Positions 17,334 to 53,290 of a stretch of 64,000 nucleotides of DNA are shown piece by piece. The notes below the pieces were generated by a model, which did not search any database, was not told where the DNA came from, and saw only the letters and a list, made by a program, of their open reading frames with translations. The stretch lies in assembly GCA_020634625.1 (NCBI GenBank), contig JACKBJ010000002.1, forward strand, positions 158,275 through 222,274, in the 5' to 3' direction. Every line of letters starts with the position of its first letter. The first letter of the stretch is position 1. This DNA is from Caldilineae bacterium (lineage in GTDB: Bacteria; Chloroflexota; Anaerolineae; Epilineales; Epilineaceae). The translations under genes were made by a program, and so were the position numbers.

Positions 17334-18767
17334 TCAAGGCGCGGCTTCCGGCTCGATCTCGACCGCGCGCATCCCCAAGCCCAGGATCAGCCACATCAGG
17401 GCGAAGGCGTGGGGGTAGGTGAAGAAGTAGTGGTCGACCAGGCCGGTGGTCAGCGCCGTGGCCAGCGCGGCCAGGCAGCCGAGCACCAGGGCGCGCTGGC
17501 CGCCGGCCGGCATGCCGTGCCAGGCCAGGAGCAGGCGCAGGGTCGCCGTGGCCATCAGGCCCAGGAAGGCCGTCAGGCCGATCAGGCCCATGGTCTCGGC
17601 GATGATCAGGTAGAGGCTCGAGACGCCGCGATAGAGGTCGATGTCGCGCGGGCTGCCGAAGCCGACGCCGAACCAGGGATAGCGCTCGATCAGCCGAAGG
17701 GCGTCCTTGTACTCGCCGAAGCGCATGACCGTGGCGCGGTCCCGGCCGGCCAGGCCGGCCAGAAAGTGCTCGACATAAGCATGGGTCCAGGGCAGGACCT
17801 GGGCCAGGGCCAGCAGGCCCAGCCCGGCCACCAGGCCGAGCGCCAGCATGCGCCGATCGCGGACCAGGCCGATGACGCCCAGCGCCGCGACGAAGCCCAC
17901 CAGCGAGCCGCGCGAGACGGTCGCCAGCAGGGCCAGGCTCATCAGCGCGACGGCGGGCAGCACCAGCCGGCGGTCGATCAGCGGGCGGCGGCTGATGGCC
18001 TGCGGCAGCAGCAGCGCGGTCATCACCCCCAGCATGCCGCCGAAGGAGTTGGGGTCGATCGAGGTGCCGGTGGCGCGCTGCAGACGTCCGGGATCGTCGT
18101 TGAGGAAGCGCAGCACGCCCGGGCCGCTGGGGTAGTCCAGCACCGAGAGGGTCGACAGCAAGCGCACCTGCAGCCCGTCGGGCAGCAGGTAGAGCGCCAG
18201 GCCGATGCATGCCGCGGCGAAGCCGAAGCCGACCAGGGCCAGGAAGATGCGGCGCAGGCGCTGGCGGTCCTCGATCAGGTTGGCCACCACGAAGAACAGG
18301 CCGGCGCCCAGCAGGAGCTCGGCGAAGCCGCGGATCTGGTTGCGGCCGGGCATGCCGTTGGCGCTGCCGGCCAGGAGCGCGGCGACCATCAGGCCCATGA
18401 ACAGCAGCACGCCGCCCGAAAGGGGCGGCAGGTGGACCCGGGCCTGGTCGCGCAGCACCAGGCGCATCAGGAAGATCAGGTAGACCGTGCCCAGGGCCAG
18501 GTCGAGCAGGGTCGGGTTGAAGCCGATGCCGAAGGGCAGGGCGGCGAAGGGCAGCAGCGTGATGACGGCGACCAGGGCCAGGAAGGCCAGGTCGATGTCG
18601 CGCATCACGAAGGGCGCGGCGGCCAGTGCCAGGAGGCAGGCCAGCGCCGCCAGCGGGTGGACGAAGACCGCCAGCGCGGCGCCGAGCAGGGTCGCCAGGA
18701 CGGCGCCGGCCAGGACGATGCGGACGCGGGCGCGCGGGTCGTCGATGCGCAGGCGGGCGAGGAGCAT
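17334..18767 (-). CDS. O-antigen ligase / Wzy_C-family polytopic membrane protein
   Basis: Multiple TM helices and a Wzy_C-like block (SRGSLVGFVAALGVIGLV). The start was chosen at the internal ATG (MLLARLRIDD), after an R/P-rich shadow extension. Confidence 0.6.
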   Translation of the reverse strand: MLLARLRIDDPRARVRIVLAGAVLATLLGAALAVFVHPLAALACLLALAAAPFVMRDIDLAFLALVAVITLLPFAALPFGIGFNPTLLDLALGTVYLIFLMRLVLRDQARVHLPPLSGGVLLFMGLMVAALLAGSANGMPGRNQIRGFAELLLGAGLFFVVANLIEDRQRLRRIFLALVGFGFAAACIGLALYLLPDGLQVRLLSTLSVLDYPSGPGVLRFLNDDPGRLQRATGTSIDPNSFGGMLGVMTALLLPQAISRRPLIDRRLVLPAVALMSLALLATVSRGSLVGFVAALGVIGLVRDRRMLALGLVAGLGLLALAQVLPWTHAYVEHFLAGLAGRDRATVMRFGEYKDALRLIERYPWFGVGFGSPRDIDLYRGVSSLYLIIAETMGLIGLTAFLGLMATATLRLLLAWHGMPAGGQRALVLGCLAALATALTTGLVDHYFFTYPHAFALMWLILGLGMRAVEIEPEAAP

Positions 18768-18922
18768 GGGCGCAATCCTAGGCCGGCGGGCCGATGGGTC
18801 AAGCCCCGGCTGCCGCCCGGCCGGGACCGATCGGGCGCGCGATTGACCGCCGGCCGTACGCGTTGCAGGATTGAGGCCCCCGCGCGCGCTGCTTCCGCGC
18901 GCGACCGAGCCAGGAGGTACCG

Positions 18923-19864
18923 GTGCACCATCCATCCGACCCGTCGTCCGGGCTCGCTCGCCGCCAGGGTCCCGCCGGCCGTCCAGGCCCGACCGAGCCC
19001 TCCGGTCCGCCCGGCCGCTTCGGCGCCCTTGGCCGGCTGACGTTGTTGGGGCTCCTGCTTCTGGCCGGCTGTCGCGGCGATCCGGCCGCCGCGCCGTTCG
19101 TCGATCTGGCCGACGCCGACTTCGAGGTCGGCGTGACCCCGCTGCCGCTGCGGGTCGAGGTCCTGGCCAGCCATCCGCACGATCCGTCGGCCTTCACCCA
19201 GGGCCTGATCGACTACGGCGGCAAGCTCTACGAGAGCACCGGGCTCAACGGCCGTTCCAGCCTGCGCCGGGTGGACATCGAGACTGGCGCCGTCGAGCTG
19301 CAGGTGCCGGTCGACGAGGCCTACTTCGCCGAGGGGCTGGAGCGGGTGGACCAGCGCCTGATCCAGCTGACCTGGCAGTCCGGCAAGGCCTTCGTCTACG
19401 ATCTGGACAGCTTCGAGCTGCTGGCCGAGCTCGACTACGCGACGGAGGGCTGGGGCCTGTGCCTGGCCGAGGCCGCCGGGCACCTGGTGATGAGCGACGG
19501 CAGCGACCAGCTCTACTTCCGCGACCCGGAGACCTTCGCGGAGCTGGGCCGGGTCGCGGTCACGCGGGCCGGCCAGCCGCAGACCATGCTCAACGAGCTG
19601 GAGTGCGTCGGCCAGGTGGTCTACGCCAACGTTTGGCAGACCGACGAGATCGTGGTCATCGACCCCGATACGGGCGCCATCGGAGCGGTCATCGACACCG
19701 CGGCCCCCGGCTCCGACCCGCTGTTGACGCCGGAGGAGCGCGCCTCGGCCGACGTCCTCAACGGCATCGTCTGGCTGGAGGACGCCGACCGCTTCCTGAT
19801 CACCGGCAAGCTCTGGCCGAGGCTCTTCGAGGTCGGATTCCAGCCGGCGGAGCCAGGCGGATGA
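18923..19864 (+). CDS. Glutaminyl-peptide cyclotransferase (plant/bacterial five-blade propeller type), lipoprotein
   Basis: The protein is collinear with Xanthomonas-type QC: SHPHDPSAFTQGL...YESTGLNGRSSLRRVDIETG...NELECVGQVVYANVWQTDEIVVIDPDTG...DVLNGIV...ITGKLWPRLFEV. The lipobox is LLLAGC. Confidence 0.85.
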   Translation: MHHPSDPSSGLARRQGPAGRPGPTEPSGPPGRFGALGRLTLLGLLLLAGCRGDPAAAPFVDLADADFEVGVTPLPLRVEVLASHPHDPSAFTQGLIDYGGKLYESTGLNGRSSLRRVDIETGAVELQVPVDEAYFAEGLERVDQRLIQLTWQSGKAFVYDLDSFELLAELDYATEGWGLCLAEAAGHLVMSDGSDQLYFRDPETFAELGRVAVTRAGQPQTMLNELECVGQVVYANVWQTDEIVVIDPDTGAIGAVIDTAAPGSDPLLTPEERASADVLNGIVWLEDADRFLITGKLWPRLFEVGFQPAEPGG

Positions 19865-21660
19865 GCCGGCACCGCTCGAGCCCTTCGGCCCCGCCCGCCG
19901 CCCGCCGCCCGCTCGTCGTGCCGAGCCGGCCCCGCCGACCCGCCGCGGCCCTGCTCGCCGGCCTGCAGGGCGGCCTGGCCGCGCTGGCCCTGCTGGCCGG
20001 GCCAGCGCCGCCGGCGACCCGCGCCCAGCCGGGGGTCGAGCGCCTGAAGCTGGAGCTGCTGGCCGAGCACCCGCACGACCCGCTGGCGCATACCCAAGGC
20101 CTGCTGTTCCACGATGGCCGGCTCTACGAGAGCGAGGGCAAGGACTACGCGCCCTTCGGCGCCGGCCAGCCCGACTACCGCTCCTCGCTGCGTCAGGTCG
20201 ACCCGAGCAGCGGCGAGGTCCTGCGCCGGGTCGACCGCAGCGACTACTGGGCCGAGGGCCTGGCACGGGTCGACAGGCGCCTGGTGCAGATCAGCTACCT
20301 GGCGCGCCGGGCCACCTTCTACGACCTCGACAGCTTCGCGGAGCTGGCTGGGGTCGACTACGAGGTCGAGGAGGGCTGGGGCCTCTGCCACGACGCGCCC
20401 CGTGATCGCCTGCTGATGAGCGACGGCTCGAGCCGGCTCTACCTGCGCGACCCGCGGAGCTTCGCGCCGCTCGGCAGCCTGACGGTGACCCTGGCGGGTC
20501 GCCCGCTGGCCAAGCTCAACGAGCTGGAGTGCGTCGGCGACCGCGTCTACGCCAACCTCTTCCCCGACATCGGGCGCCCCGACCTCTACGACACCATCGC
20601 GCGCATCGATGCCCGGACCGGGGTCGTCGACGGGCTGATCGACGCCGGCGGCCTGCTGAGCGCCGCCGAGATGGCCGAGTTCGGCGTGGCCGAGCTCAAC
20701 GGCATCGCGGCCGATCCGGAGCGCCAGGTCTTCTACCTCACCGGCAAGCTCTGGCCCAAGCTCTTCGAGGTGCGCCTGGTGCCCGACGATTCGCGCGGGA
20801 CGGTCACGCCCGAGCTCTCGCCCTCGCCGGAGCCCAGCGCCAGCCCCTCGAGCGGCCCCAGCGCCACGCCGACGGCCGCGCCCACCCGGCCCCCGGCGCC
20901 GCCCGAACGGCTGCGCGTGCAGGTGCTCGAGCGCCTGCCCCACGATTCGACCATCTACACCCAGGGCCTGCTGCTCCACGAAGGCATCCTCTACGAGACC
21001 TCGGGTCACCCGTCGGCGGCCACCGGCGGCCCGGTGCGGCTCTCCGCGCTGCGGGCGCTGGTGCCCGAGACGGGCGAGCAGCTGCGCATCACCGAGCTCG
21101 ACGACCGCTATTACGGCGAAGGCCTGGCCTTGCTGGCCGACCGGCTCTTCTGGATCACCTGGCAGGACGGCCTGGCCTTCGAGTTCGATCGCGACAGCTT
21201 CGAGCGCCTGGAGGTGCACAGCTATGCCGGCGAGGGCTGGGGCCTCTGCTCGGACGGCCACGACTTGTTCATGAGCGACGGCTCGGCCCGCATCACCCGC
21301 CGCGATCCCGAGGACTTCAGCGTCCTGGGTCAGGTCGAGGTGCGCGACATGGGCCAGCCGGTAGCCCGGCTCAACGAGCTCGAATGCGTGGACGACCAGG
21401 TCTACGCCAACGTCTGGAAGACCGACGAGATCCTGCGCATCGACCGCCGCAGCGGCAACGTGCTGGCTCGGATCGACGCCAGCGGCCTTCGGCCGGCCAG
21501 CGCCACCAACCGCGAGGCCGTGCTCAACGGCATCGCCTGGGATGCGGCCAGCCAGACCTTCCTGATCACCGGCAAGTGGTGGGACCTGATGTACCGCGTC
21601 CGCTTCGTGCCCGCGTCCGCCGCGCCGATCTATCTGCCGCTGCTGCGGCAGGGTGGCTGA
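19861..21660 (+). CDS. Tandem double glutaminyl cyclase: two QC propeller domains joined by a Pro/Ser linker
   Basis: Both QC domains are complete (HPHDPLAHTQGLL...NELECVGDRVYANLF...GKLWPKLFEV and LPHDSTIYTQGLL...NELECVDDQVYANVW...GKWWDLMYRV). The ATG overlaps the upstream stop (ATGA). Confidence 0.85.
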   Translation: MSRHRSSPSAPPAARRPLVVPSRPRRPAAALLAGLQGGLAALALLAGPAPPATRAQPGVERLKLELLAEHPHDPLAHTQGLLFHDGRLYESEGKDYAPFGAGQPDYRSSLRQVDPSSGEVLRRVDRSDYWAEGLARVDRRLVQISYLARRATFYDLDSFAELAGVDYEVEEGWGLCHDAPRDRLLMSDGSSRLYLRDPRSFAPLGSLTVTLAGRPLAKLNELECVGDRVYANLFPDIGRPDLYDTIARIDARTGVVDGLIDAGGLLSAAEMAEFGVAELNGIAADPERQVFYLTGKLWPKLFEVRLVPDDSRGTVTPELSPSPEPSASPSSGPSATPTAAPTRPPAPPERLRVQVLERLPHDSTIYTQGLLLHEGILYETSGHPSAATGGPVRLSALRALVPETGEQLRITELDDRYYGEGLALLADRLFWITWQDGLAFEFDRDSFERLEVHSYAGEGWGLCSDGHDLFMSDGSARITRRDPEDFSVLGQVEVRDMGQPVARLNELECVDDQVYANVWKTDEILRIDRRSGNVLARIDASGLRPASATNREAVLNGIAWDAASQTFLITGKWWDLMYRVRFVPASAAPIYLPLLRQGG

Positions 21661-21665
21661 GCCGC

Positions 21666-22286
21666 ATGGCCTGGATCGAGACCGTTCCACCGCGTGACGC
21701 GACCGGACGCTTGGGGCGCATCTACGCCCAGGCCATCGCCCGGGCCGGGAAGGTCTTCCAGATCCTGCAGATCCAGAGCCCGAACCCGGCCGTGCTCCAG
21801 GGCAGCATGCAGCTCTACACCGCCAGCATGATGGGCGCGTCGCCCCTCTCGCGGGCCGAACGCGAGGCGCTGGCCACCACCGTCAGCCGCCTCAACGCCT
21901 GCCACTACTGAACCCAGGCCCATGCGGCGGACTTCCGGTCGGAGGTCGAGGCGGAGATCGCTGCCGGCACCTGGCCCGGCCCCGGCGACGTCGGGGCGAT
22001 GGTCGACGCCTTGATCCACGACGATGCGCGCGTCGCCTGGTCGCCCCGTCTGCGCGCCCTGCTCGACTATGCCGCGACGCTGACGCGCCGCCCCGCCAGC
22101 GTCGATTCCGCCGATCTCGACGCGCTGCGCGCCCAGGGCCTCGGCGACCGCGCCATCCACGACGCGGCCCAGGTCATCGCCTACTTCAACTACATCAACC
22201 GCGTCGCCGACGGCCTGGGCGTCGATCTCGAGCCGGACATGCCGCCTCGGCCGCTGCATTCCCAGGTCGCGCCGCAGGAGCCCTAG
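21666..22286 (+). CDS. AhpD/carboxymuconolactone-decarboxylase-family 'peroxidase-related' protein with an in-frame TGA (selenocysteine candidate, CxxU), or a nonsense-disrupted pseudogene
   Basis: The two track ORFs (ending 21911, starting 21999) share one frame with no other stop between them. The TGA at 21909-21911 falls exactly where the second Cys of the family motif belongs (VSRLNACHY-U-TQAHAA versus the family VSxxNGCxYCxxxH). A hairpin with a GGUC loop lies 19-37 nt downstream. Confidence 0.5.
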
Positions 22287-22288
22287 CC

Positions 22289-23149
22289 ATGAGCCGCGCC
22301 GATGGTCTTGCCTCAGCCGAGCCATTCCGCATCTCGCCGATCCGCGCCGGCCTGGGCGCCCGCATCGAGGGCCTCGACCTTTCGGCCCCGCTGGATGAGA
22401 CGACCTTCGAGGCCATCCGGCGCGCCTTCTTCGAGCACCACATTCTGGCCATTCCCGGCCAGGACATCTCCGCCGCCGACCTGGTTCGCTTCAGCAAGCG
22501 CTTCGGTGAGCTCGAGCCGCACCTGCTCGACCAGTTCCACCATCCCGACTTTCCCGAGATCCTGATGCTCTCCACCGTGGTCGAGGACGGTCGGCCGCTG
22601 GGCTTCGCCACCCCGCCCGACCCGGCCTTCCACTCCGACCTCTCCTACCGACCCCTACCCAGCCGCGTCACCCTCCTCTACGCGCTGGAGGTGCCGACCG
22701 ACGGTAGCGGCGACACCCGCTTCATCGACACCGTGGCGGCCTACGAGGCCCTGCCTGCCGAGATCCAGAGATCGATCGGCCATCTCCGGGCGGTCCACAA
22801 CTACGCCTACCGCTACGGCGACCGTCTGACGCCCGAGCAGTTGGCCAGGACCGAGGATGTCGTGCACCCCGTCGTGCGCCGCATCCCCGAGACGGGCCAG
22901 CGGTCGCTCTTCGTGAACCCCAGCTTCACCGGGCGCATCGAGGATCTGCCGGAGCGGGCCAGCCAGAACCTCCTAAGCCAACTCTTCGAGCATTGCGAGC
23001 AGGAGCGTTTCGGTCTGACCTACGCCTGGACCGCCGGCGACCTCGTCTTCTGGGACAACGCGGCCACGATGCACGCCGCGACGGCGCTGCCGGAGGGGGC
23101 GCGGCGAACCTTGATGCGGACGACGGTGATCGGAGAGGTTCCGATCTGA
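22289..23149 (+). CDS. TauD/TfdA-family Fe(II)/2-oxoglutarate-dependent dioxygenase
   Basis: Family-typical blocks are HSDLSYRPLPSRVTLLYALEVP, GDTRFID and DLVFWDNAATMHAA. The ATG lies 2 nt after the upstream stop. Confidence 0.85.
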   Translation: MSRADGLASAEPFRISPIRAGLGARIEGLDLSAPLDETTFEAIRRAFFEHHILAIPGQDISAADLVRFSKRFGELEPHLLDQFHHPDFPEILMLSTVVEDGRPLGFATPPDPAFHSDLSYRPLPSRVTLLYALEVPTDGSGDTRFIDTVAAYEALPAEIQRSIGHLRAVHNYAYRYGDRLTPEQLARTEDVVHPVVRRIPETGQRSLFVNPSFTGRIEDLPERASQNLLSQLFEHCEQERFGLTYAWTAGDLVFWDNAATMHAATALPEGARRTLMRTTVIGEVPI

Positions 23150-23534
23150 GAGCCTGTCCGAGCAGAGACCTCGGTGGGCAAGCGCGTATCGAGGTCGTCT
23201 GTGTCCGACTACGTGAACACAGTCGCCTGGAAGCGTCCGGTTCTGGTGGCCGAGCTCGGGTGACTCCGCCTGCGAGCCTATCTCGCCGGCAGCCCGATAT
23301 GAAGTTCCCCGGTGGACTCGTGCTGACAGGCGATCCGGCCTGGCCGTGGAGGAAGGCTTGCGGTAAGCAGCGCCCTGCCGTCTCCGAAGCGGGTTGTCCG
23401 AAGTCTTCCAGCCCTACCGGTCTCTACTTTCCGTCGAAAGACGACAGGGGCACCCGCTTGGACACCCCTGTTCATTCACGTTCATTCACGTTCAGCGCAC
23501 GCTCGCGCCCGAGGCCAGCCGACGTGGACGGAGG

Positions 23535-24758
23535 CTAGGACTCCACCACCGCCATCGCCGCCTCGCGTAGCGCAGCTGCCCGGTCGGTCCGCTCCCAGGG
23601 CAGGTCCAGGTCGTCGCGGCCGAAGTGCCCGTAGGCCGCCGTCTGGCGGAAGATCGGCCGGCGCAGCTTCAGGTCGCGGATGATGGCGCCCGGCCGCAGG
23701 TCGAAGTGCGCCTGCACCAGCTCGCGGATGCGCTCGGGGTCGATCGTCTCGGTGCCGAAGGTGTCGATGTTCAGCGAGAGCGGCTCGGCCACGCCGATGG
23801 CGTAGGCCAGCTGGATCTCGACCCGCGTGCAGAGCCCGGCCGCGACCAGGTTCTTGGCCACCCAGCGCGCCGCGTAGGCGCCCGAGCGGTCGACCTTGGT
23901 GGCGTCCTTGCCGCTGAAGGCCCCGCCGCCGTGGCTGGCCATGCCGCCATAGGTGTCGACGATGATCTTGCGGCCGGTCAGGCCGCAGTCGCCCTGAGGG
24001 CCGCCGATGACGAAGCGCCCGGTCGGGTTGGTCAGGATGCGCGTCTCGGCGTCCATCAGCTCGGCCGGCATGACCGGCTTGATCACGTGCTCGATCAGGT
24101 CGCGGCGAATCTGCTCCTGGCTCGCGTCCGGGTCGTGCTGGGTCGAGATGAGCACGGTCGTGACGCGCTTGGGCTTGCCGTAGGCGTACTCGACCGAGAC
24201 CTGGCTCTTGCCGTCCGGGCGCAGGTACTTCAGGGTCGAGTTCTTGCGCACGTAGGCCAGCCGGCGGGTCAGCTGGTGCGCCAGGTGGATCGGCAGCGGC
24301 ATCAGCTCGTCGGTCTCGTCGCAGGCGAAGCCGATCATCATGCCCTGGTCGCCGGCGCCGATGGCCTCGACCTCGGCGTCGCTCATCGCGCCTTCCTTGT
24401 GCTCCAGCGCCTCGTCGACGCCCATCGCGATGTCGGCCGACTGCTTGTTGATGGCCGTGATCACGCCGCAGGTGTCGGCTGCGATGCCGTAGGCGGCGTC
24501 GGTATAGCCCGTGGCGCGGATGGCGTCGCGGATCACCTGCGGGTAGTCGACCGTCGCGCTGGTGGTGATCTCGCCGGTGACCAGGGCCAGGCCGGTGGTC
24601 ACCACCGTCTCGCAGGCCACCCGGCCGCGCGGGTCCTGCTCCAGAATGGCGTCCAGGATGGCGTCCGAGATCTGGTCGCAGAGCTTGTCCGGGTGGCCCT
24701 CGGTCACCGATTCGCTGGTGAACAGGAATCGGGGCGAGGACATGAACGAGGTCGTCAT
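23535..24758 (-). CDS. metK: S-adenosylmethionine synthetase
   Basis: [34 protein letters not shown] and the full MAT signature. An alternative start is the ATG 15 nt downstream (MSSPRF). Confidence 0.95.
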
Positions 24759-24760
24759 CG

Positions 24761-25768
24761 TCAGGCTCCTTGATGCCGGCCGGCATGGCGGCCATGCTGG
24801 TGCGCGCGGTTCAGGGCGTCCACGAGCGCGTCGGGGATGTCGCCGAAGTGCTCGGCATAGCGCTTGGTGAAGCTGGGGATGGTGTAGCGGTGGGCCTGGG
24901 TCCCCAGCGATTCCAGGGCGTAGGTGGCGGCCAGCGCGCCGGCGCGGCCGGCCACCGGCCAGGGCAGACCGTGCAGCAGCCCGAACATGATGCCCGAGCG
25001 GTAGGCGTCGCCGATGCCGGTGGGATCGACCTGGCGCGTGGCGGGCACGGCCGGGATGACGTGCGTCTCACCGCCGGCGCGGATCACCGAGCCCTTCTCG
25101 CCGTGGGTGATCACCACCACGTCGGTCATGCCGACGATGGCATCCTCGGTCAGGCCGGTCTTCTCGTGCACCAGCTCGAACTCGTACTCGTTGGCCACGA
25201 AGCAGGTGCAGCCCTCGATGCCGGCCACCAGCGCCTCGCCCGACAGCCGCACGATCTGCTGGCTGGGGTCGTAGACGTAGGGGATCTCGAGGTCCCGGCA
25301 CTCCTGGACGTACTTGACCATCGCCTCGGGCGCGTTGGGCGCGATCACGGCCAGCTCGATCGAGGCCGCGTCGAGGTCGTGGAAGGACAGCTGCGTGGCC
25401 GAACCCATCGCGCCGACGTAGAAGCTGGCGATCTGGCGGTTCTTGCGGTCGGTCGAGACGAAGAAGCTCGAGGTGCTCTCGTCCGGCAGGACCCGGGTCA
25501 GGGACATGTCCACGCCGTGCTGCTCGAGGCGCTCGTGGTCGTAGGCGAAGTCGGCGCCGACGGTGGCCATGACGTGCGGGCATTCGCCGAGCAGGGCCAG
25601 GTTGTAGGCGATGTTGGCCGCGCAGCCGCCCGGCTCGCGACGCAGGCTGTCGACCAGGAAGCTGACCGAGAGCACGTCGATCTTGTCGGGCAGGATGTGC
25701 TCGCTGAAATCGCCCGGAAAGGACATGATGTAGTCGTAGGCGACCGATCCGGTGATGATGATGCGCAT
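24761..25768 (-). CDS. PfkB-family carbohydrate/nucleoside kinase (adenosine kinase, or 5-deoxyribose / methylthioribose-type kinase)
   Basis: Ribokinase fold motifs are present: the GG motif ([16 protein letters not shown]) and the anion-hole [12 protein letters not shown]. It is sandwiched between mtnA and metK in one operon. Confidence 0.75.
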
Positions 25769-25792: not shown

Positions 25793-26878
25793 CTAGGACG
25801 CGGGCACCGGGCTGGCGGCGGCCTCGACCGCCGCGCGCAGGCCGGCTTCGAAGGGTGGGCGCAGCACGCCTGCCTCGGTCACGATGGCGCTGATGTAGCG
25901 GGCCGGCGTCAGGTCGAAGGCCGGGTTGGCGGCCGTGACCCCGGCCGGCGGGATGCGCCGACCGGCGATCTCGGTGACCTCGGTCGGGTCGCGCAGCTCG
26001 ATCGGGATTTCGGCGCCGCTGGGGCAGCCCAGGTCGATGGTCGAGCTCGGGGCGACGACGTACACCGGCACGCCGTTCTCGCGGGCGACCACGGCCAGCG
26101 GATAGGTGCCGACCTTGTTGGCCACGTCGCCGTTGGCCGCGATCCGATCGGCGCCGACCAGCACGGCGTCGACCTCGCCCCGCTGCAGATAGTAGCCGGC
26201 CGCTCCGTCGACGATCAGGGTCTGCGGCACGCCCAGCCGCGCCAGCTCCCAGGTGGTCAGCCGCGCGCCCTGCAAGCGCGGCCGCGTCTCGTCCACCAGG
26301 ACCCGGATTCGCTTGCCCTGCTCGTGCGCGGCCCGGATCACGCCCAGGGCGGTGCCGTAGTCGACCGTGGCCAGCGCGCCGGTGTTGCAGTGGTGGATCA
26401 CGGTGCAGCGCTCGGGCAGGAGCGCCGCGCCATGGGCGCCCATGCGCCGGTTGGTGGCCAGGTCCTCGTCGGCGATGCGCTCGGCCTCGGCCAGCGCCAG
26501 CGTGCGCAGGGCGGTCGGCTCGGTCTCGCCGGCCGCGATCTCGGCGTCGAGTCGACCGAGCACGCGGCGCAGGGCCCAGGCCAGGTTGGAGGCGGTCGGC
26601 CGGGCCGCCAGGAGCGTCTCGGCGTCGATGGCCAGATCGGCGCGCAGGCCGGCGGCCGTCGACGCCGTCGACCCCTGGGCACCGAGGGCCAGGCCGTAGG
26701 CCGCCGTGGCGCCGATGGCCGGGGCGCCGCGCACGGCCATGTCGCGGATGGCCTCGGCCAGACTGGCCACGTCGTCCAGGACCAGCGTCGACTCCCGCTC
26801 GGGGAGCAGGCGCTGGTCGATCATGCAGACGCGCGCGTCGCGCCAATAGACGGTTCGTGTCGGGCTCATCGCCTTCAT
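25793..26878 (-). CDS. mtnA: Methylthioribose-1-phosphate isomerase family (MtnA/DrdI, eIF-2B-like)
   Basis: [19 protein letters not shown] and [15 protein letters not shown]. The start was set to the ATG (MKAMSPT) because the TTG at 26911 would overlap the riboswitch terminator. Confidence 0.85.
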
Positions 26879-26900
26879 CGCATGCCTGCCCTGCCGTGGC

Positions 26901-26941
26901 ACCAAAAACAAACGACGTCTCGCCGCAGGCGCAGAGACGTC
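26901..26941 (-). terminator. Intrinsic terminator forming the riboswitch expression platform
   Basis: The minus strand reads GACGUCUC-ugcgccugcggc-GAGACGUC followed by GUUUGUUUUUGG. Confidence 0.7.
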
Positions 26942-26950
26942 GGGGAGAAC

Positions 26951-27062
26951 CTCTCATCTCTCGATCCGCGCTGTCGCGCGAGCCGGCGGACTTGGCACCG
27001 TGGCCTTGGCCTGGTTGCCGGGGTTTCGTCGGGCCGTTCCCTCCACCCCTCTCGATAAGATC
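26951..27062 (-). promoter_or_regulatory. SAM-I (S-box) riboswitch aptamer
   Basis: The minus strand reads UCUUAUCGAGAGGGGUGGAGGGAACGGCCCGACGAAACCCCGGCAACCAGGCC...GGUGCCAAGUCCGCC...GAUCGAGAGAUGAGAGG. This matches the S-box consensus blocks (UCUUAUCaAGAG, GGAGGGA, GGCCCgAUGAA, GCAACC, GGUGCnAAnUCC, closing AGAUGAGAG). The P1 helix is UCUUAUC/GAUGAGA. Confidence 0.85.
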
Positions 27063-34329: not shown

Positions 34330-36306
34330 TCAGCGACGCCAGGCCTGTCCGAGCAGCGGCACGAAGACCCGCTGGCGCGGTTCGACCACCCGGTAGCGGG
34401 CCACGGCCGGCCGGCCGCCGGCCAGCCAGACCGTGATGTCGCGCTTGTCGGGATCCAGGCGGAGGGCGCGCACCCGCCGCGGCTCGATCGAGGCGCCGAG
34501 CGGCGACAGGATGTGGTACTCCCAGGTCAGGCCGTTCCAGTGCAGCAGGCCGTTGGCGTCCACCAGCACCCAGGCCGTCCCCGGCGCCGGCGAGTCGACG
34601 TCCAGCAGCCCGATGGCTTCGGGGATCGGCAGCTCGACCGGCGTCCAGGTCTGCCCATCGAAGCGAAGCAGCCGATCGGCCTCGGTGCCGCTCCGCGCCC
34701 GCGCGATGGCCCAGCCCTCGTTGGCCGTGCTGACCACGAGGCGCGGCACCCAGTAGCCCTCGCCGATGGCCTGGGCGGTCCAGAGGCCGTCGGCCAGATG
34801 CAGGATCTCACCCTCGGCGCCGAACCAGCCCTCGGGCTCGACTCCGCCCCGGAGCATCGAGAAGGCGCCAAAGCGGGCGCTGAACGGCGCCCCTTCCACC
34901 TGCTGCCAGTCGCTGCCGTCCCAGCGGGCCACGACGTTGCTGCCCGTGAGCCAGGCCTCCTGCTCGGAGATGGCCTGCACCGCGTACAGATCCCAGGTCT
35001 TTTCGACCGGCCAGGCGCGCCAGGCCGCGCCGTCCCAGCGCCAGGCCAGGGCTTCGGGCGGGCTGCCCGGCGCGCTGCCGACCGCCCAGCCTTCGCGCTC
35101 GCTGGCCAGGTCGAGGTCGGTCACCCGCGTGCCAGCGGGCATGGCCTGGGCCAGCCGCCAAGGGCCGTCGCTGGCACCGACCATGCCGGCGCTGACGGCC
35201 AGGCCGCCGGCCCAGCCGAAGTCATCCGAAACGGCATCGAGCGCTTCGAGGGGATTGGCCTGCGGCCACAGGGATTCGGCGGCCTGGCCGTCTCGCACGC
35301 GCAGCACCTCGCCCTGCGTGCCCAGGGCGAAGAAGCCGTCTTGGCCCGGCGCCAGGCCGCTGACGACCGAGCCGGTCGGAAGCTCCACCGGCGACCAGTC
35401 GAGCGCGGCGTAGCGATAGACCTTTTCGCCGACCAGGACGTAGGCGGTCGATCCGCGCCAGACCGCGTCATGGTAGACGAGATCGTCCGGACCGGCCTCG
35501 CGCCAGACGCCGTCGGCGAGCTCCCAGGCGCCGGCGCCGAGGAAGAGCCCCCGGCCCTCGGCCGAGAATGCGATGGCCGCCGGGCGTCGAATCCGCGGTG
35601 CGGTGGCGTCGATCTGCCAGCCCGTGCCATCGTTGACCAGGACCTCGCCGCTGGCCGCCATGGCGTAGGCTCGCCCGCCTCCAGCGCTGGCCACCGCGCG
35701 GATATCGACCAGACGCAGCGCGTCGGGCACCGCCGTCGGTCGCCAGATGCCGCCGTCCCAGTAGAGGATGGTGCCGCGCGTGCCGGCCGCCCAGCCGTCG
35801 GCGGGCCCGGCGAGGTCGAGGCTGGACAGGCTGCTGCCGGTCGGTGACGGGTAGCGCAGCCAGCTGGATCCGATCAGGCGAAAGATCGCTCCGCCGTCGC
35901 CGACCGCGAAGCCGGTCGAACCGACGATCGCGATGCGCGAGAGGCTGACGTCGTTGACGATCTGAGCGCTGCGCCAGACCCCGGCCTCCCAGCGCACGAA
36001 GCTGGTCTGGTCCCGAGTGTCGCGGCCAGCCACGAAGGCGGAGCGATCGAGACCCCAGGCCGAATCGGCAGCCACGAGCGCCAGATCGTCGACCTGGCGA
36101 AAGCCACCGTAGAGCAGCTCCCAGCTCGGAACCCAATCGCCGCGTGGCAGCATGGCCTGGGCCCGGGCCACCGGGCCGCCCGAGCCTCCGAGGATCAAGG
36201 CCGCGGCGAGCGCGGTGGCCAGCCGCCCGGCCCGACCAGGCTGGGATCGACGCAGGGGTGTGAGCATTCGGAGCCTCCCGTGACGCGTGCCGAAGCGCCA
36301 GCGCAT
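34330..36306 (-). CDS. Secreted BNR/Ycf48-like beta-propeller repeat protein
   Basis: Signal peptide present. Blades of the form GWAxG...W(D/N)G..W recur many times (GWAAGTRGTILYWDGGIWRP, EAWLTGSNVVARWDGSDWQQV, GTAWVLVDANGLLHWNGLTWEY). Confidence 0.55.
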   Translation of the reverse strand: MRWRFGTRHGRLRMLTPLRRSQPGRAGRLATALAAALILGGSGGPVARAQAMLPRGDWVPSWELLYGGFRQVDDLALVAADSAWGLDRSAFVAGRDTRDQTSFVRWEAGVWRSAQIVNDVSLSRIAIVGSTGFAVGDGGAIFRLIGSSWLRYPSPTGSSLSSLDLAGPADGWAAGTRGTILYWDGGIWRPTAVPDALRLVDIRAVASAGGGRAYAMAASGEVLVNDGTGWQIDATAPRIRRPAAIAFSAEGRGLFLGAGAWELADGVWREAGPDDLVYHDAVWRGSTAYVLVGEKVYRYAALDWSPVELPTGSVVSGLAPGQDGFFALGTQGEVLRVRDGQAAESLWPQANPLEALDAVSDDFGWAGGLAVSAGMVGASDGPWRLAQAMPAGTRVTDLDLASEREGWAVGSAPGSPPEALAWRWDGAAWRAWPVEKTWDLYAVQAISEQEAWLTGSNVVARWDGSDWQQVEGAPFSARFGAFSMLRGGVEPEGWFGAEGEILHLADGLWTAQAIGEGYWVPRLVVSTANEGWAIARARSGTEADRLLRFDGQTWTPVELPIPEAIGLLDVDSPAPGTAWVLVDANGLLHWNGLTWEYHILSPLGASIEPRRVRALRLDPDKRDITVWLAGGRPAVARYRVVEPRQRVFVPLLGQAWRR

Positions 36307-36418
36307 GATGCGGAAGCAGGGGTCGTCGAGTCAAGCCGAGCCCGAGCGTCCGCGCGGCCGATGGCGCTCCGGCATCGGCCGGCGTCGCAAATCGGTCGGA
36401 TCGAGCATAGAACATTTG

Positions 36419-36427
36419 TGCTATACT
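36419..36427 (+). promoter_or_regulatory. Extended -10 (TGcTATACT) for the M23 peptidase transcript
   Basis: catttgTGcTATACTccgcac, about 80 nt upstream of an aaaggag RBS. Confidence 0.4.
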
Positions 36428-36506
36428 CCGCACTCGAGAGGCTCGGTCCCGGGCTCCCCCCGGGGTTCGGCCGAAGCGGCCGACGACGAAAGGAGATGAC
36501 GAAGCC

Positions 36507-38408
36507 ATGCTCGGGCGAGCGACACGACACGATTCCCACCGAAGCGCGATCCGCCGCGAGGTTGCCGGATCGGGCACGGGTCGGCGTATCTCGACGGTCT
36601 GGCTGCTGGTCGGCTTGCTGGTCAGCCTGCTGATCCTGTCCCAGCTGGGTCGGGGCGGGCGCCTCGAAGCGCGCGCACGCGCGGTCCCGGCACCGCTCGG
36701 GTCGCCGGCCGAGCCGCTCGCCCCAGGGCTCGCGGACTTCGTCCGCGGCCCGGAGCAGCTGCTCCAGGATGCGGAGCTCGTCTTCGGCGCTGGCGCCGGA
36801 CGCTTCGACACGGCGGCCTTCCTGGCAGGCCGGCCCGAGCTGCTGCCCGGGCCGCCGGCCGCGACGGCCGCCGCCATCGACGGGGTGGCGCGGCGGCACG
36901 CCATCGATCCGCGCCTGCTGCTCAGCCTGCTGAGCCTGGATCCGGCTGGGGAAGGCGTCGACACCGCCGACCGCGCGGCGCGCATCGCCGTCTGGCTGGC
37001 CGACGGCTACTACGGGCTCAAGCTCCGCGGCGAGGCCGATCTGATCTTCGCCGACGGCAGCCGCCAGCGAGGACCGGTCGAGGGCGGCGCCGCGCACTTC
37101 GCCGTCGCGCGCTATCTGGCCCGTCAGGGGACGGCCGTCGAGCAGCCAGCGCGACAGGCCCGTTTCGCCGAGCGCTACGCCGAGCTCTTCGGTGCTGCGC
37201 CCCGTCTGGAGGCACCGGTGCCGGATGGGTTGCGGCAGCCGCCCCTCCTGCTGCCCTGGGCCGAAGGGCAGCGCTGGCACTACACCGGCGGTCCACATGG
37301 CGCCTGGGGCGTGGCCTCGGCCTGGGGTGCGGTCGACTTCGCCCCGCCCTCGCTCGTCGGCTGCCGGGCCGCTCCGGAATGGACCCTCGCCGCGGCGCCC
37401 GGACGGGTCACCTGGTCGGACACGGGTCTGGTGCTGGTCGACCTGGACGGCGATGGCAACGAAGGCACGGGCTGGGTGCTGGCCTACCTGCACATGGCCA
37501 GCGAGGGCCGGGTCGCGGTCGGCCGATGGCTGGAGGCGGGCGAGCCGCTGGGGCACCCCTCCTGCGAGGGCGGTGTGGCCGACGGCGCGCATCTCCACTT
37601 CGCGCGGCGCTACAACGGGGAGTGGCTCCCGGCCGCCGGTGGGCCGGTGCCGATGGAGCTCTCCGGCTGGCGCTTCAGCTCCCTGGGCGGGGAGTATGAC
37701 GGCAGCATGCAGCATCCCGAGCAGGGCGAGCGGATGGCCGTTACCAGCCGCCGCGGCGGCGCATCCGACCTGGTCAGCGATAACGGGCCGGCGCGCCGTG
37801 AGGCCCTCGCCAGCGCCTGGGCGGCGCTGTCCGCCGGCGCGCCGGCCCGACTCGAAGACGCCGACTCGGGGCTGTCGCGCGCGCCCGAACCGATGACCGA
37901 AGCGGCGCGTCCCGCCGCGCCGGCGACTGCGGCCGCTGCCATGTCGGCGGCCGGCGGCGCCACGGGCGCGGCCACGATCGCCGTCCGAATCGCCCTCGAA
38001 GGCCGGGATGACGCGTCCACGCCGGTCGTGCTCGGCCTGGTCGGCGCCGCCGCGCCGCCACTGGTGTTGATGGCGCGCACCAACGCGGCCGGTGAGACCG
38101 GCGCCATCGCGCTTCCGGACGAGGCCCGCGGGATCTACGATCTGACCCTACGAGCGCCGGGCTTCGCGCCCGCCTTCGTGCTGGGTGTGACGATCGGCGA
38201 GCCGGGCCTCGAGATCGACCTCAGCGCCGGCGGACGGCTGCGCCTGGCTGCCGGCGAGCTCAACGGCGATGACGTGATCGACGGGCGTGACCTCGGCGCC
38301 TGGCTGACGCATTGGCGCGCCGGGCGTCCACTCGCCGATCTGGACGGCGATGGCTGGGCCGGACCGGGTGATCTCTGGCGGGCCATGAACGCCGCCGCGG
38401 GACGCTGA
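36507..38408 (+). CDS. M23-family (LytM-like) metallopeptidase with a C-terminal dockerin-type Ca-binding module
   Basis: The M23 core is GGPHGAWG...WGAVDFAP...GWVLAYLHM...HPSCEGGVADGAHLHF. The C-terminal dockerin-like repeats are LNGDDVIDGRDLGAWL and DLDGDGWAGPGDLWRAM. Confidence 0.75.
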   Translation: MLGRATRHDSHRSAIRREVAGSGTGRRISTVWLLVGLLVSLLILSQLGRGGRLEARARAVPAPLGSPAEPLAPGLADFVRGPEQLLQDAELVFGAGAGRFDTAAFLAGRPELLPGPPAATAAAIDGVARRHAIDPRLLLSLLSLDPAGEGVDTADRAARIAVWLADGYYGLKLRGEADLIFADGSRQRGPVEGGAAHFAVARYLARQGTAVEQPARQARFAERYAELFGAAPRLEAPVPDGLRQPPLLLPWAEGQRWHYTGGPHGAWGVASAWGAVDFAPPSLVGCRAAPEWTLAAAPGRVTWSDTGLVLVDLDGDGNEGTGWVLAYLHMASEGRVAVGRWLEAGEPLGHPSCEGGVADGAHLHFARRYNGEWLPAAGGPVPMELSGWRFSSLGGEYDGSMQHPEQGERMAVTSRRGGASDLVSDNGPARREALASAWAALSAGAPARLEDADSGLSRAPEPMTEAARPAAPATAAAAMSAAGGATGAATIAVRIALEGRDDASTPVVLGLVGAAAPPLVLMARTNAAGETGAIALPDEARGIYDLTLRAPGFAPAFVLGVTIGEPGLEIDLSAGGRLRLAAGELNGDDVIDGRDLGAWLTHWRAGRPLADLDGDGWAGPGDLWRAMNAAAGR

Positions 38409-38471
38409 GGGGCTTCGGCCCGCCATCTGCGCTCGTCTCGGCGTCCCGTCGGTGCAGGATGGCGACCCAGG

Positions 38472-38480
38472 TGCTACAAT
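38472..38480 (+). promoter_or_regulatory. Extended -10 (TGcTACAAT) 9 nt before the ATG; implies a leaderless mRNA
   Basis: gTGcTACAATcggcgcctcATG. Confidence 0.4.
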
Positions 38481-38489
38481 CGGCGCCTC

Positions 38490-40757
38490 ATGTCACCCCT
38501 GCTAGCCCTCGCATCTCCGGTCTCGCTGGCGCTCGCCGCCCTTGCGAGCCTCGTTCCCGCCTCGAGGCAGCGCTTCCGACCGCGACTGCTGCTGCCGCTG
38601 CTGGCGCTCGTCGCGCTCGGCGCCGCGGTGACGCAGCTGGCCATGCTCTGGGACGGCACGCGGGCGAGCCTGGGCGTGACGCTCTCGCCCTGGACCGCGC
38701 GCCTGTTCACCGTCGGGCCGCGTCTCGAGGTCGATGCCTTGGCGGCCTACGGCGTCCTCCTGGTCTGCCTGGCGAGCCTGGTGGCGCTGCTGCATGGCCT
38801 GCGGGATGAGTCCCTGGCGATCGAGTCGCTGGCCGGCCCCTTGGCGGTGGCCAGCAGCGCCACGCTGTTCTGTGCCGCCACGCGTTCGCCCCTCGGGCTG
38901 GTGTCGAGCTGGCTCTTGATGGACCTGGCGCTCTTCTTCGGCGCCGGCGTTCGCCGGCGTGGCCTCCTGGCTGGCCAGCTCGGACTGCTCTTCATCCTGG
39001 CCGGCCTCATGGGCCTGGCCGACCCGAGCCTGGTCGGCGGCGAGCTTGGCAGCTGGCCGCGCCTCTGGCTGCTGGCCGCGGCCGGCATCCGGATGGGGAC
39101 CTATCCCTTCTCCTGGGCCCTGCCGCGGACTCGGATGGACGGTGTCTGGCGGGCCGGCATCCTGCGTCTCGGACCCGCGGTCGCCGGTGCCACGTTGGCC
39201 ATCCGGGCTGGCGCGAGCCTCGGCTCGGGCAACGGGGTCGATCCGCTGTCGCTGCTGCCCGGCGCGCTCGCCATGCTCTTCGGCGGCCTCCTGGCCTGGC
39301 TCTCGGCGGAGCGCGGCACCGCGCTCGACTGGGCGTTCACCGCCGGAGCGGGCCTGCTGCTGACCGCTGCGGCCCTCGGAAGTCCGGTCGGCACGACGGT
39401 CGCGGCCCTGCTGCTGGCGGACCTGGTGCTCGGCCGCCTGGCGCAATACCTGGCCGAGGATACCCCCGGTCAAGCGCCGCGCCTTGCCTGGGGACTGTCG
39501 GCAGCCAGCCTGGCCGGCCTGCCGCCCTTGCTGGGCTTCTTCGCGCGCGTGCTGCTCTACCGGGCCCTGCTCGATGGCGGACATGGTTGGGTGCTGCTCA
39601 CGGCGGCCCTGTCGACGGCGCTGACGGCGGCCCCCTTCGGTCGGCTGCCCGCCCTGTCTCCCAGGACCGAGGGCCCGAGCGCCTGGCAGCTGCTGCCGCT
39701 CGGCCCGGCGCTTCCGCTGGTCCTGCTCGGTCTGCTGTCCGGCTGGCTGCCGTTCGCCCTGTCCGGCGCCGAGTGGTCGCCGATGGCGGGGAGCGCGCGC
39801 GCCTTGCTCGGCCTGGATTGGCGCCTGATCTCGGCCTTGCTGGTGCCGCCGCTGCTGGGCTTCGCGATTCACCGCAGCGGATGGGGCAGCCGGCGGCCGC
39901 CCGTCGATGCGCCCCGCCGGCGTGTCAGCCGATTGCTGCGCCTGACCGAGCTCTTCGACGGCATGCGGACGGCCTTGATCCAGACGGGCCGGATGATCCA
40001 TCGCAGCCTCGGGCTGGTCGAGGGGCATCGCACCATGGCGTTGACCCTGCTGGCGGCCGTGGGCGTGGGCCTGACGGTCCTGGCCGGCGCCGGTCCCCTG
40101 CCCGATCCGGTCGGACCGGGTCTCGACGGGGTGGGCATGATCCTCTGGGGCGTGGCGACGCTCATCGCGGTGGTCAACCTGCTCGTCACCCGGCGCCTGG
40201 TCACCCTGATCATCCTGTGGGTCAGCTACCTGCTCGTCGCGGCGGTGCTGCTGGTCAGCGGCGGCACGCCGACGCCGGCGGCGCTGGTCGTCAGCGCCCT
40301 GGTCAAGGGACTGGCCGGCATCGTCGTCGTGGCGATCCTGTCCATCAGCGTGGTTCAGCTCGGTGCGGACGGCGCGGCGGGGGCGGCGCGTCGCGCCCCG
40401 CTGTTGGCGGCCGAGCCGAGCGATCGCAACGAGACCCCCTTGCGCCTCCTGGCCCTGTGCATCGCCGTGCTCCTCACCGGCAGCCTGCATGCCACCACCC
40501 TGCAGCCGACGCTGCCGGACATGGTCCTGCGCCCGGCCCTGACCCTGATCGTCGGCGGGGTCTTGACCGCCATCTTCGCGCGCAGCCCGCTGCGGCTCGC
40601 CGTGTCGGTGCTGGTCGCCCTGTGCGGCTTCGAGCTGATCTATGCTCGGCTCGATCCGGGGCTGTTCATGACCGGTAGCCTGGCCGCGTTCCACATCCTC
40701 TTCGCCATCCTGGCCTCGCTCTATGTCGGGCTGGCCTTGGACCCCGAAACGGCATGA
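38490..40757 (+). CDS. Highly divergent NuoL/M/N-like (PF00361, complex I/Mrp antiporter-like) polytopic membrane protein, 755 aa
   Basis: About 20 predicted TM helices. A degenerate core (GTYPFSWALP...AGATLAIRAG) aligns to FPLHTWLPDA...AATMVTAGVYLLIR, and AYSSIAHMG corresponds to AFTAGAGLLLTAAALG. The antisense 730-aa ORF is a shadow. Confidence 0.5.
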   Translation: MSPLLALASPVSLALAALASLVPASRQRFRPRLLLPLLALVALGAAVTQLAMLWDGTRASLGVTLSPWTARLFTVGPRLEVDALAAYGVLLVCLASLVALLHGLRDESLAIESLAGPLAVASSATLFCAATRSPLGLVSSWLLMDLALFFGAGVRRRGLLAGQLGLLFILAGLMGLADPSLVGGELGSWPRLWLLAAAGIRMGTYPFSWALPRTRMDGVWRAGILRLGPAVAGATLAIRAGASLGSGNGVDPLSLLPGALAMLFGGLLAWLSAERGTALDWAFTAGAGLLLTAAALGSPVGTTVAALLLADLVLGRLAQYLAEDTPGQAPRLAWGLSAASLAGLPPLLGFFARVLLYRALLDGGHGWVLLTAALSTALTAAPFGRLPALSPRTEGPSAWQLLPLGPALPLVLLGLLSGWLPFALSGAEWSPMAGSARALLGLDWRLISALLVPPLLGFAIHRSGWGSRRPPVDAPRRRVSRLLRLTELFDGMRTALIQTGRMIHRSLGLVEGHRTMALTLLAAVGVGLTVLAGAGPLPDPVGPGLDGVGMILWGVATLIAVVNLLVTRRLVTLIILWVSYLLVAAVLLVSGGTPTPAALVVSALVKGLAGIVVVAILSISVVQLGADGAAGAARRAPLLAAEPSDRNETPLRLLALCIAVLLTGSLHATTLQPTLPDMVLRPALTLIVGGVLTAIFARSPLRLAVSVLVALCGFELIYARLDPGLFMTGSLAAFHILFAILASLYVGLALDPETA

Positions 40758-52922: not shown

Positions 52923-53290
52923 CTGGGTTCATCTCCTCGAGCAAGATGGGCTCTCGGGCTCGTCGGCAAGAGTCGACCATGGGGCTTGCGCGGCGGGCGA
53001 CGGTTTCAAGGATCGTTCAAGGTGCCATTCATCATACATCAGCCTTCGAACGGCGAGGATAGGCCGGCGGGCTGAGCCGGGGCTGAGCGATGGCTTAGGG
53101 CTCGCTCACCTTCGCCGGCCTGGCGCGGCCGGGACCGGGAATGGAACCAAATCGGTTGGGCCGACGTTCTATAGGTGTCCCGGATGCCGGCACGGGCTTG
53201 GCCCAGGTCGGGGCAGGGGTCCATCATGAACGGGTCGAGGTCGCGGCGGGCCCTCGGGGGCCGGCCGATAGCACGGAGGCAAGAAACGTC

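Follow-up and report, generated by a model that had tools for sequence, protein, structure and literature searches.

Glutaminyl cyclases (QCs) of the plant type (type I) are five-bladed propellers with solved structures from Carica papaya (2IWA/2FAW), Xanthomonas campestris (3MBR), Zymomonas mobilis (3NOL) and Myxococcus xanthus (3NOK). In these enzymes the role of proton shuttle is assigned to E69 and that of oxyanion stabilization to N155 and K225, and retention of these residues in plant-type enzymes is read as a strong sign of activity (PMC5837995). A membrane-associated lipoprotein QC acts on the products of signal peptidase I in Bacteroidetes, the so-called 'Q-rule' (PMC5837995, PMC10653852). 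AhpD-like selenoproteins were first described by Zhang, Fomenko and Gladyshev in 2005 (PMC1088965), are abundant in PMC2398784 and are catalogued as 'AhpD-like protein, TIGR01926, CxxU' (PMC13188914). The TauD/TfdA dioxygenases include the taurine dioxygenases of E. coli and P. putida, AtsK and RdpA/SdpA. Here we analyze a cluster of four adjacent genes that brings these families together, located in a 64,000-nucleotide stretch (the window) of contig JACKBJ010000002.1 from the metagenome-assembled genome of a Caldilineae bacterium of the phylum Chloroflexota. Every component of the cluster belongs to a described family, and we consider it likely that the cluster is a lineage-specific mosaic of these families, perhaps carried on one transcript, with no shared pathway.

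Organization of the four-gene cluster

The cluster consists of two cyclase genes, QC1 and QC2, followed by an AhpD-like gene with an in-frame TGA and a TauD-family gene (aa, amino acids):

18923-19864, + strand: QC1, 313 aa, one PF05096 domain (E 4.5e-84)
19861-21660, + strand: QC2, 599 aa, two PF05096 domains (E 4.7e-147)
21666-22286, + strand: AhpD-like, 206 codons including the in-frame TGA, PF02627 (CMD)
22289-23149, + strand: TauD-family, 286 aa, PF02668 (E 1.5e-63)

Pfam and NCBIfam matches bear out the four identities, all on the + strand, that had been assigned in the original prediction from the sequence, including that of the third gene as a selenocysteine (Sec) or Cys AhpD-like protein. 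The junctions it had listed need one correction. QC1 and QC2 share a single ATGA overlap (19861-19864) and the AhpD-like and TauD-family genes are separated by 2 nucleotides (nt; 22287-22288), as described, whereas the gap between QC2 and the AhpD-like gene measures 5 nt (21661-21665) instead of 6, the ATG lying at 21666, with which the gene calls of the source contig concur. A Shine-Dalgarno-like purine run precedes every start, and no terminator-like site was found within the cluster, nor a promoter-like site 5' of QC1. An Rfam scan of positions 18400-23700 at a permissive threshold returned nothing relevant. Judged by this layout, co-transcription of the four genes is plausible. Comparably tight same-strand junctions are found elsewhere in the window (2 nt between pfkB and metK, a 4-nt overlap at 40754-40757); they are normal for this compact genome and do not mark the cluster out. 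The G+C content of the window is 70-75%.

Public gene calls on identical DNA (L001: 6818-7576, 8383-9372, 9378-9623 and 9723-9998) give a different picture of the locus. QC1 is called as a truncated protein of 252 aa that has lost its lipoprotein signal, QC2 is reduced to its C-terminal propeller (329 aa), and the selenoprotein is split into two hypothetical open reading frames (ORFs) of 81 and 91 aa. Across public gene calls the second of these ORFs measures 91-95 aa.

Gene neighborhoods in related genomes

In order to follow the four genes into other genomes, two collections were scanned, both of which list best matches only, so that all counts given here are counts among the matches listed. 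A scan of GTDB species representatives gave at least 80 loci with a Sec-containing AhpD-like gene (AhpD-Sec), from Planctomycetota, Acidobacteriota, Chloroflexota and Actinomycetota. A metagenome scan with a tandem-QC alignment returned mostly single-domain cyclases, with tandem forms only in L102, L103 and L152, and was used as a negative control. Neighbors were searched with phmmer and with profile hidden Markov models (HMMs) built from 105 cyclases and 120 TauD homologs, within a radius of 8 kb for the AhpD-Sec loci.

By either method, none of the 80 listed AhpD-Sec loci has a cyclase or TauD ORF within 8 kb, and an AhpD or TauD gene is equally absent from all 80 listed metagenomic cyclase loci. 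With ORFs clipped to exclude the AhpD gene itself, no neighbor family is common to more than 9 of the 80 AhpD-Sec loci, the commonest identifiable neighbors being selB (9/80) and selA (6/80). An apparent neighbor family of 46 loci had been chained through out-of-frame AhpD translations and disappeared upon clipping. The AhpD-like family is elsewhere a stand-alone gene in variable contexts.

Related loci, by contrast, retain parts of the cluster. Identities below are to the window proteins, and none of these loci has a TauD gene behind the cyclases:

L087: QC2 71%, AhpD 78%; divergent Wzy_C gene, then QC1, QC2, AhpD-Sec and a glyoxalase gene
L089: QC2 50%, AhpD 60%; QC1, QC2, AhpD-Sec with different flanks
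L092: QC2 51%, AhpD 62%; QC1, QC2, AhpD-Sec with different flanks
L091: QC2 42%; QC1, QC2, without AhpD-Sec
L093: QC2 47%; QC1, QC2, without AhpD-Sec
L090: QC2 41%; tandem QC against a convergent metK-pfkB-mtnA operon, without AhpD-Sec

Hence the QC1-QC2 pair recurs in five of these loci (L087, L089, L091, L092 and L093), while the tandem QC stands alone in L090 and L152. Behind QC2, an AhpD-Sec gene is present only in the window, L087, L089 and L092, and the full order of four genes was found only in the source species, as was TauD behind the cluster. A possible second case is L095, whose TauD protein is 74% identical: here AhpD-Sec is followed by TauD, but the contig ends inside the AhpD gene, so that the upstream side is missing. 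TauD relatives of 56-67% identity occur in unrelated contexts: after an ABC transporter (L098), beside GNAT/NUDIX genes (L096) or alone (L100). Conservation of a neighborhood of QC, AhpD and TauD, which had been put forward as a check, is therefore confined to partial orders in close relatives. What linkage remains is QC1-QC2-AhpD(Sec) in L087, L089 and L092 and AhpD(Sec)-TauD in L095.

Two features flanking the cluster in the window help to place these arrangements:

17334-18767, - strand: Wzy_C (O-antigen-ligase-like) membrane protein, PF04932 (E 1.1e-14), divergent from QC1
25793-26911, 24761-25768 and 23535-24758, - strand: operon of mtnA (IF-2B family), a pfkB kinase gene and metK

The relatives L087, L089, L090 and L093 likewise have an upstream Wzy_C gene on the opposite strand, and among neighbors it is the commonest companion of the cyclase pair. 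L152 has the same convergent order of QC and metK as L090, and the window differs from L090 in having the AhpD-like and TauD-family genes interposed between the tandem QC and metK. As the tandem QC abuts metK directly in L090 and L152, these two genes look inserted in the window lineage.

Both cyclases carry an export signal whereas the AhpD-like and TauD-family proteins lack a signal peptide, as read by eye from the N-terminal sequences. If these predictions hold, the membrane would separate the cyclases from the other two proteins. The Chloroflexota envelope is generally considered to have a single membrane and hence no true periplasm.

A mosaic would account for this distribution as follows. 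Its conserved core would be the pair of exported plant-type cyclases QC1-QC2, often divergent from Wzy_C. The selenoprotein, a predicted cytoplasmic thiol/selenol oxidoreductase in which UGA would be read as Sec by means of a Sec insertion sequence (SECIS) within the coding sequence, may have joined the pair in one sub-clade, and the last gene, for a putative cytoplasmic TauD/TfdA dioxygenase, only at its tip. The two genes added behind the cyclase pair would then share at most a transcript with it. Judging from these gene orders, the proposed four-gene system is not a conserved entity.

Several observations weigh against a mosaic. Junctions of 5 and 2 nt point to translational coupling in the source species, and close relatives are under-sampled in both collection scans. 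The adjacency of QC2 and AhpD persists down to 50% (QC2) and 60% (AhpD) identity with flanks changed in L089 and L092, and this persistence could reflect selection for linkage. Finally, no selA, selB, selC or selD gene and no tRNA-Sec was found in the 64-kb window.

Persistence of the trio while its flanks changed is also what the best surviving alternative rests on, namely that, in this Caldilineae clade, the genes for QC1, QC2 and the AhpD-like selenoprotein are genuinely linked in function as a module, which TauD joined later as a passenger. The selenoprotein might then, for instance, act on an oxidant or on a thiol/selenol compound connected with secreted-protein maturation. Four distinct genomes (the window, L087, L089 and L092) have retained the trio, and the QC-adjacent AhpD proteins are mutually closest, with 78, 77, 62 and 60% identity to the window protein against at most 58% for all others. 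However, this pattern fits a single ancestral juxtaposition inherited vertically. The gap between QC2 and AhpD widens to about 140 nt in L089 (from coordinates) and 51 nt in L092, relatives with a QC2 of 41-47% identity (L090, L091 and L093) have no AhpD gene, and all 80 other listed AhpD-Sec genes do without a nearby QC. Since the cyclases are moreover predicted to be exported and the selenoprotein is not, we regard such a module as unlikely.

Three cyclase propellers with distinct pockets

QC1 starts at a GTG with a strong ribosome-binding site (AGGAGG) 7-12 nt upstream and has a canonical lipobox, LLLLAG-C50, with LAGC encoded at 19061-19072. Its orthologs each possess a lipobox or an N-terminal membrane anchor, indicating that proteins of the QC1 type are membrane-tethered and outward-facing; QC1 itself would be lipid-anchored at the outer face of the cell membrane. 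The protein spans positions 23-248 of the 249 in the PF05096 profile, matches the cyclase structure 3NOL with an E-value of 1.6e-55 and is about 47% identical to the N-terminal propeller of QC2.

QC2 contains two PF05096 stretches, the better of which covers profile positions 18-249 of 249. Its parts are:

about aa 1-55, + strand: signal peptide with probable cleavage at TRA/QPG, read by eye
aa 57-312, nt 20029-20796, + strand: N-propeller, from PF05096 and the AlphaFold model
aa 313-342, + strand: Pro/Ser/Thr linker, disordered in the AlphaFold model
aa 343-594, nt 20887-21642, + strand: C-propeller, from PF05096 and the AlphaFold model

The AlphaFold model, made for QC2 only and built on 13 sequences, contains two confident all-beta domains (block-mean predicted local distance difference test, pLDDT, mostly above 85) joined by a linker below 50. 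The best Foldseek matches of the model are the solved plant-type cyclases 3MBR, 3NOL, 2IWA and 3NOK, with target TM-scores of 0.86-0.93 and root mean square deviations of 1.6-2.2 Å. QC2 would accordingly be a secreted protein in which a flexible linker connects two five-bladed propellers that are independent of each other.

We mapped nine active-site residues of papaya QC (F22, Q24, F67, E69, W83, W110, N155, W169 and K225; list from PMC9436314) onto the three propellers, with these residues at the nine positions in turn:

QC1: F, Q, F, E, W, W, N, W, K; 9/9 identical to papaya
QC2 C-propeller: Y, Q, Y, E, W, W, N, W, K; 7/9 identical, with F22Y and F67Y
QC2 N-propeller: H, Q, W, E, Y, W, N, F, K; 5/9 identical, with H22, W67, Y83 and F169

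All three thus retain the polar set Q24, E69, N155 and K225, so that the loss of catalytic residues envisaged as a refutation is not seen in this set. The pocket of the QC2 N-propeller departs from the plant-type pattern at four aromatic positions, where F, F, W and W are replaced by H, W, Y and F; Y83 and F169 are also present in an active Plasmodium enzyme (PMC9436314). Each of the three pocket patterns is repeated in the orthologs from L087, L089 and L092, and largely in those from L091 and L093, which identifies the propellers as stable, distinct paralogs as opposed to decaying copies. The different aromatic pockets, conserved between orthologs as they are, suggest three substrate preferences. 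Most likely, the three propellers would form pyroglutamate from the N-terminal Gln of peptides or proteins that have been exported, and at a slower rate from N-terminal Glu.

With the known plant-type cyclases the window proteins share the five-bladed propeller, 30-50% sequence identity and, in QC1, all nine pocket residues. They differ in that three propellers are spread over two adjacent genes, two of them fused via a disordered Pro/Ser/Thr linker. Three complete propellers including a covalent tandem had been called unusual, and this holds: tandem cyclases are rare, although not unique, as only about 15 of 641 homolog clusters cover both propellers. In the papers searched we found no description of a tandem cyclase enzyme, and to that extent the tandem cyclase and the set of three paralogs represent a known enzyme in a domain arrangement not described before.

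Other fusions occur among the homologs. Five proteins (P0151, P0171, P0172, P0192 and P0203) combine a plant-type cyclase domain with signal peptidase I (PF10502), and a larger group, including P0160, P0164, P0179 and P0211, with a PAF-acetylhydrolase-like alpha/beta hydrolase (PF03403).

A Q-rule outside Bacteroidota?

The lipoprotein and the tandem cyclase together might constitute a dedicated system for pyroglutamylation of the secretome in Caldilineae/Anaerolineae, that is, Q-rule-like capping outside Bacteroidota, to which the selenoprotein is perhaps tied in one sub-clade. Like the Bacteroidetes enzyme, QC1 is a predicted outward-facing lipoprotein. The fusions with signal peptidase I found among homologs of the window cyclases fit a role directly after signal-peptide cleavage, but are a hint only. 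Some of the predicted secreted proteins of the window, QC2 included, would start with Gln. On the other hand, the organism belongs to another phylum and probably has a single-membrane envelope, Porphyromonas uses an unrelated animal-type enzyme, and the evidence from Gln amounts to three or four cases read by eye in 64 kb and not to a proteome-wide enrichment. We view a Q-rule-like system as decidedly doubtful.

The cleavage sites predicted by eye to expose an N-terminal Gln in the window are TRA/QPG, ARA/QAM and VGA/QNP, in turn for QC2 (19861-20030), a secreted protein of 658 aa (34333-36306, - strand) and a CotH protein (59840-62296, + strand). The QC2 ortholog of L087 (8001-8130) has a predicted ALA/QPG, likewise read by eye only. 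Scripted signal-peptide calls for an enrichment of N-terminal Gln caught membrane proteins and placed cleavage sites wrongly and were not used.

The TauD-family dioxygenase and the proposed tailoring pathway

The TauD-family protein covers positions 2-267 of the 267 in the PF02668 profile. Its best match in the PDB is P. putida TauD (3PVJ, E 1.3e-43), and it also matches E. coli taurine dioxygenase (E 2e-40), with alignments running end to end. In the alignment with P. putida TauD, H115-x-D117, H262, R273 and R277 fall at the positions that bind iron, 2-oxoglutarate and the anion, following the ligand numbering and residue roles of E. coli TauD. The protein thereby resembles the TauD/TfdA dioxygenases in its full-length domain match, the HxD...H iron triad and two C-terminal arginines. 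Unlike them, it falls below every NCBIfam equivalog cut-off, scoring 182.4 bits against the taurine dioxygenase equivalog NF007104 (cut-off 313), and is accordingly not assigned as a taurine dioxygenase. It also differs in that a tauABC-type transporter is not adjacent, in contrast to L098. A small anionic compound, for instance a sulfonate, would be a reasonable guess at its substrate.

The original prediction had linked all four genes in a single periplasmic pathway, in which the N-terminus of a peptide or protein is cyclized and then oxidatively tailored outside the cytoplasm. In its favor are the common strand with overlaps or gaps of at most 5 nt and no internal terminator-like site, and the intact catalytic residues of the cyclases and TauD. 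Nevertheless, the comparisons above contradict it, as partners are found at 0/80 listed AhpD-Sec and 0/80 listed QC loci, the four-gene order is confined to the source species and TauD relatives adjoin other genes or stand alone. Furthermore, the cluster contains no precursor-peptide ORF, transporter or protease gene, the AhpD-like and TauD-family proteins have no export signals and would act across the membrane from the cyclases, and a single-membrane cell offers no periplasm in the strict sense. We judge such a pathway very improbable.

A probable AhpD-like selenoprotein

The AhpD-like protein scores 120.3 bits against the NCBIfam family TIGR01926 'peroxidase-related enzyme' (cut-off 81.8; the query carried C at the U position). 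Its relatives in the PDB (2PFX, 3C1L, 6K40 and 2OYO) are structural-genomics 'peroxidase-related' proteins and the D. radiodurans AhpD-like protein 6K40. The redox motif reads C79-H-Y-U82, the last residue being specified by the in-frame TGA:

21909-21911, + strand: in-frame UGA (Sec) in the context C-H-Y-TGA-T-Q-A-H, at the second position of the AhpD CxxC-type motif
21930-21947, + strand: SECIS-like hairpin GACUUCC-GGUC-GGAGGUC (7-bp stem, G-containing loop of 4 nt), starting 18 nt past the UGA

Identical DNA, TGA included, is present in six independent assemblies, which rules out an assembly error as its source. A TGA occupies this codon in all 81 aligned loci (80 plus the window), and conservation of the frame extends to either side of it. 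L087, L089, L092 and L095 have the TGA as well, which brings the count to 85/85. The closest relatives in protein databases (50-60% identity) are C-terminal fragments that start directly after the TGA codon, while more distant full-length homologs have Cys at the Sec position, in the motifs CDYC, CTYC and CEYC (P0023, P0031, P0032 and P0076).

The hairpin is covered by the same alignment. Over 81 loci, 77.9% of cells are paired compared with 34-46% when the partner is slid, and 18 compensatory cells were counted against 5.4 in shuffles, none of 500 shuffles reaching the observed number. Examples are GAU...AUC in L011, L018 and L044 and CUU...AAG in L016, L037, L089 and L092, the last two loci having U-A variants. 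Bacterial SECIS elements are characterized by an apical loop that is small and contains G (PMC1088965). The hairpin is the centroid structure of the single-sequence fold; the folding energy of single sequences 3' of the UGA is no better than that of shuffles (z-scores +1.2 and +1.7), a measure that is uninformative in GC-rich DNA, for which reason the 81-locus alignment serves as the SECIS evidence.

Taken from these alignments, the in-frame TGA is very probably decoded as Sec. A recoded genetic code (TGA as Trp or Gly) was ruled out, since TGA is the ordinary stop of QC1, QC2 and TauD. That the TGA is instead a true stop in a pseudogene or between two short ORFs is scarcely credible: public callers do split the gene in this way, Sec machinery and tRNA-Sec are missing from the window and the folding energy of the UGA region is unremarkable, but against this stand the TGA at the exact codon in 85/85 loci of four phyla with strong in-frame protein conservation beyond it, the Cys of distant homologs, the compensatory changes, the proximity of selB and selA in several genomes and the cataloging of the family as selenoproteins (PMC13188914).

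The window protein is thus an additional member of the catalogued family (TIGR01926/COG2128, CxxU), which it resembles in its HMM match above cut-off, the Sec at the second CxxC-type position, the G-loop SECIS hairpin close to it on the 3' side and widespread Cys homologs. There is no essential difference; the window copy is from Chloroflexota and lies behind cyclase genes.

In several Actinomycetota (Gaiellales/Thermoleophilia; L053, L057, L065, L074, L078, L080, L086 and others) selB and selA are encoded 2-3 kb from AhpD-Sec on the opposite strand. Three full-length JGI proteins (P0001-P0003) have W at the Sec position (CFYW, CYYW and CHYW), probably because the annotation pipeline applied a code in which TGA means Trp. 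Four homologs (P0056, P0058, P0068 and P0120) carry a C-terminal rubredoxin-like CxxC...CxxC tail (PF21349/PF23458), and two others (P0087 and P0099) a C-terminal GNAT acetyltransferase domain.

Other features of the window

The convergent TauD-family and metK genes are separated by a non-coding gap of 385 nt (23150-23534) that gave no Rfam match and no terminator-like site and contains a short tandem repeat, GTTCATTCAC x2, near its metK end. The mtnA-pfkB-metK operon, which converges on TauD, is headed by an S-adenosylmethionine (SAM) riboswitch (RF00162, 77 bits, 26951-27061, - strand). Farther downstream, the region 34333-42073, and especially 38000-42000, holds four consecutive long ORFs without a Pfam match, at least two of which resemble polytopic membrane proteins; its AT skew of -0.34 to -0.36 is strongly negative and unseen elsewhere in the window. 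A bacterial alpha-2-macroglobulin-like lipoprotein of 2160 aa with A2M, bMG10 and MG2 domains is encoded at 53141-59623 (+ strand). The CotH protein gene that follows it encodes a member of the CotH kinase family with a lamin-tail domain.

Implications

Overall, ATGA overlaps and gaps of 2-5 nt indicate co-transcription at most, and here the neighbors change on leaving the source species. Nothing in the cluster opens a long-standing question. Re-reading the locus mends the public annotation for three of its four genes, and the TIGR01926 selenoprotein supplies a well-supported SECIS alignment over four phyla. The conserved three propellers with their distinct pockets present a testable case of paralog specialization.

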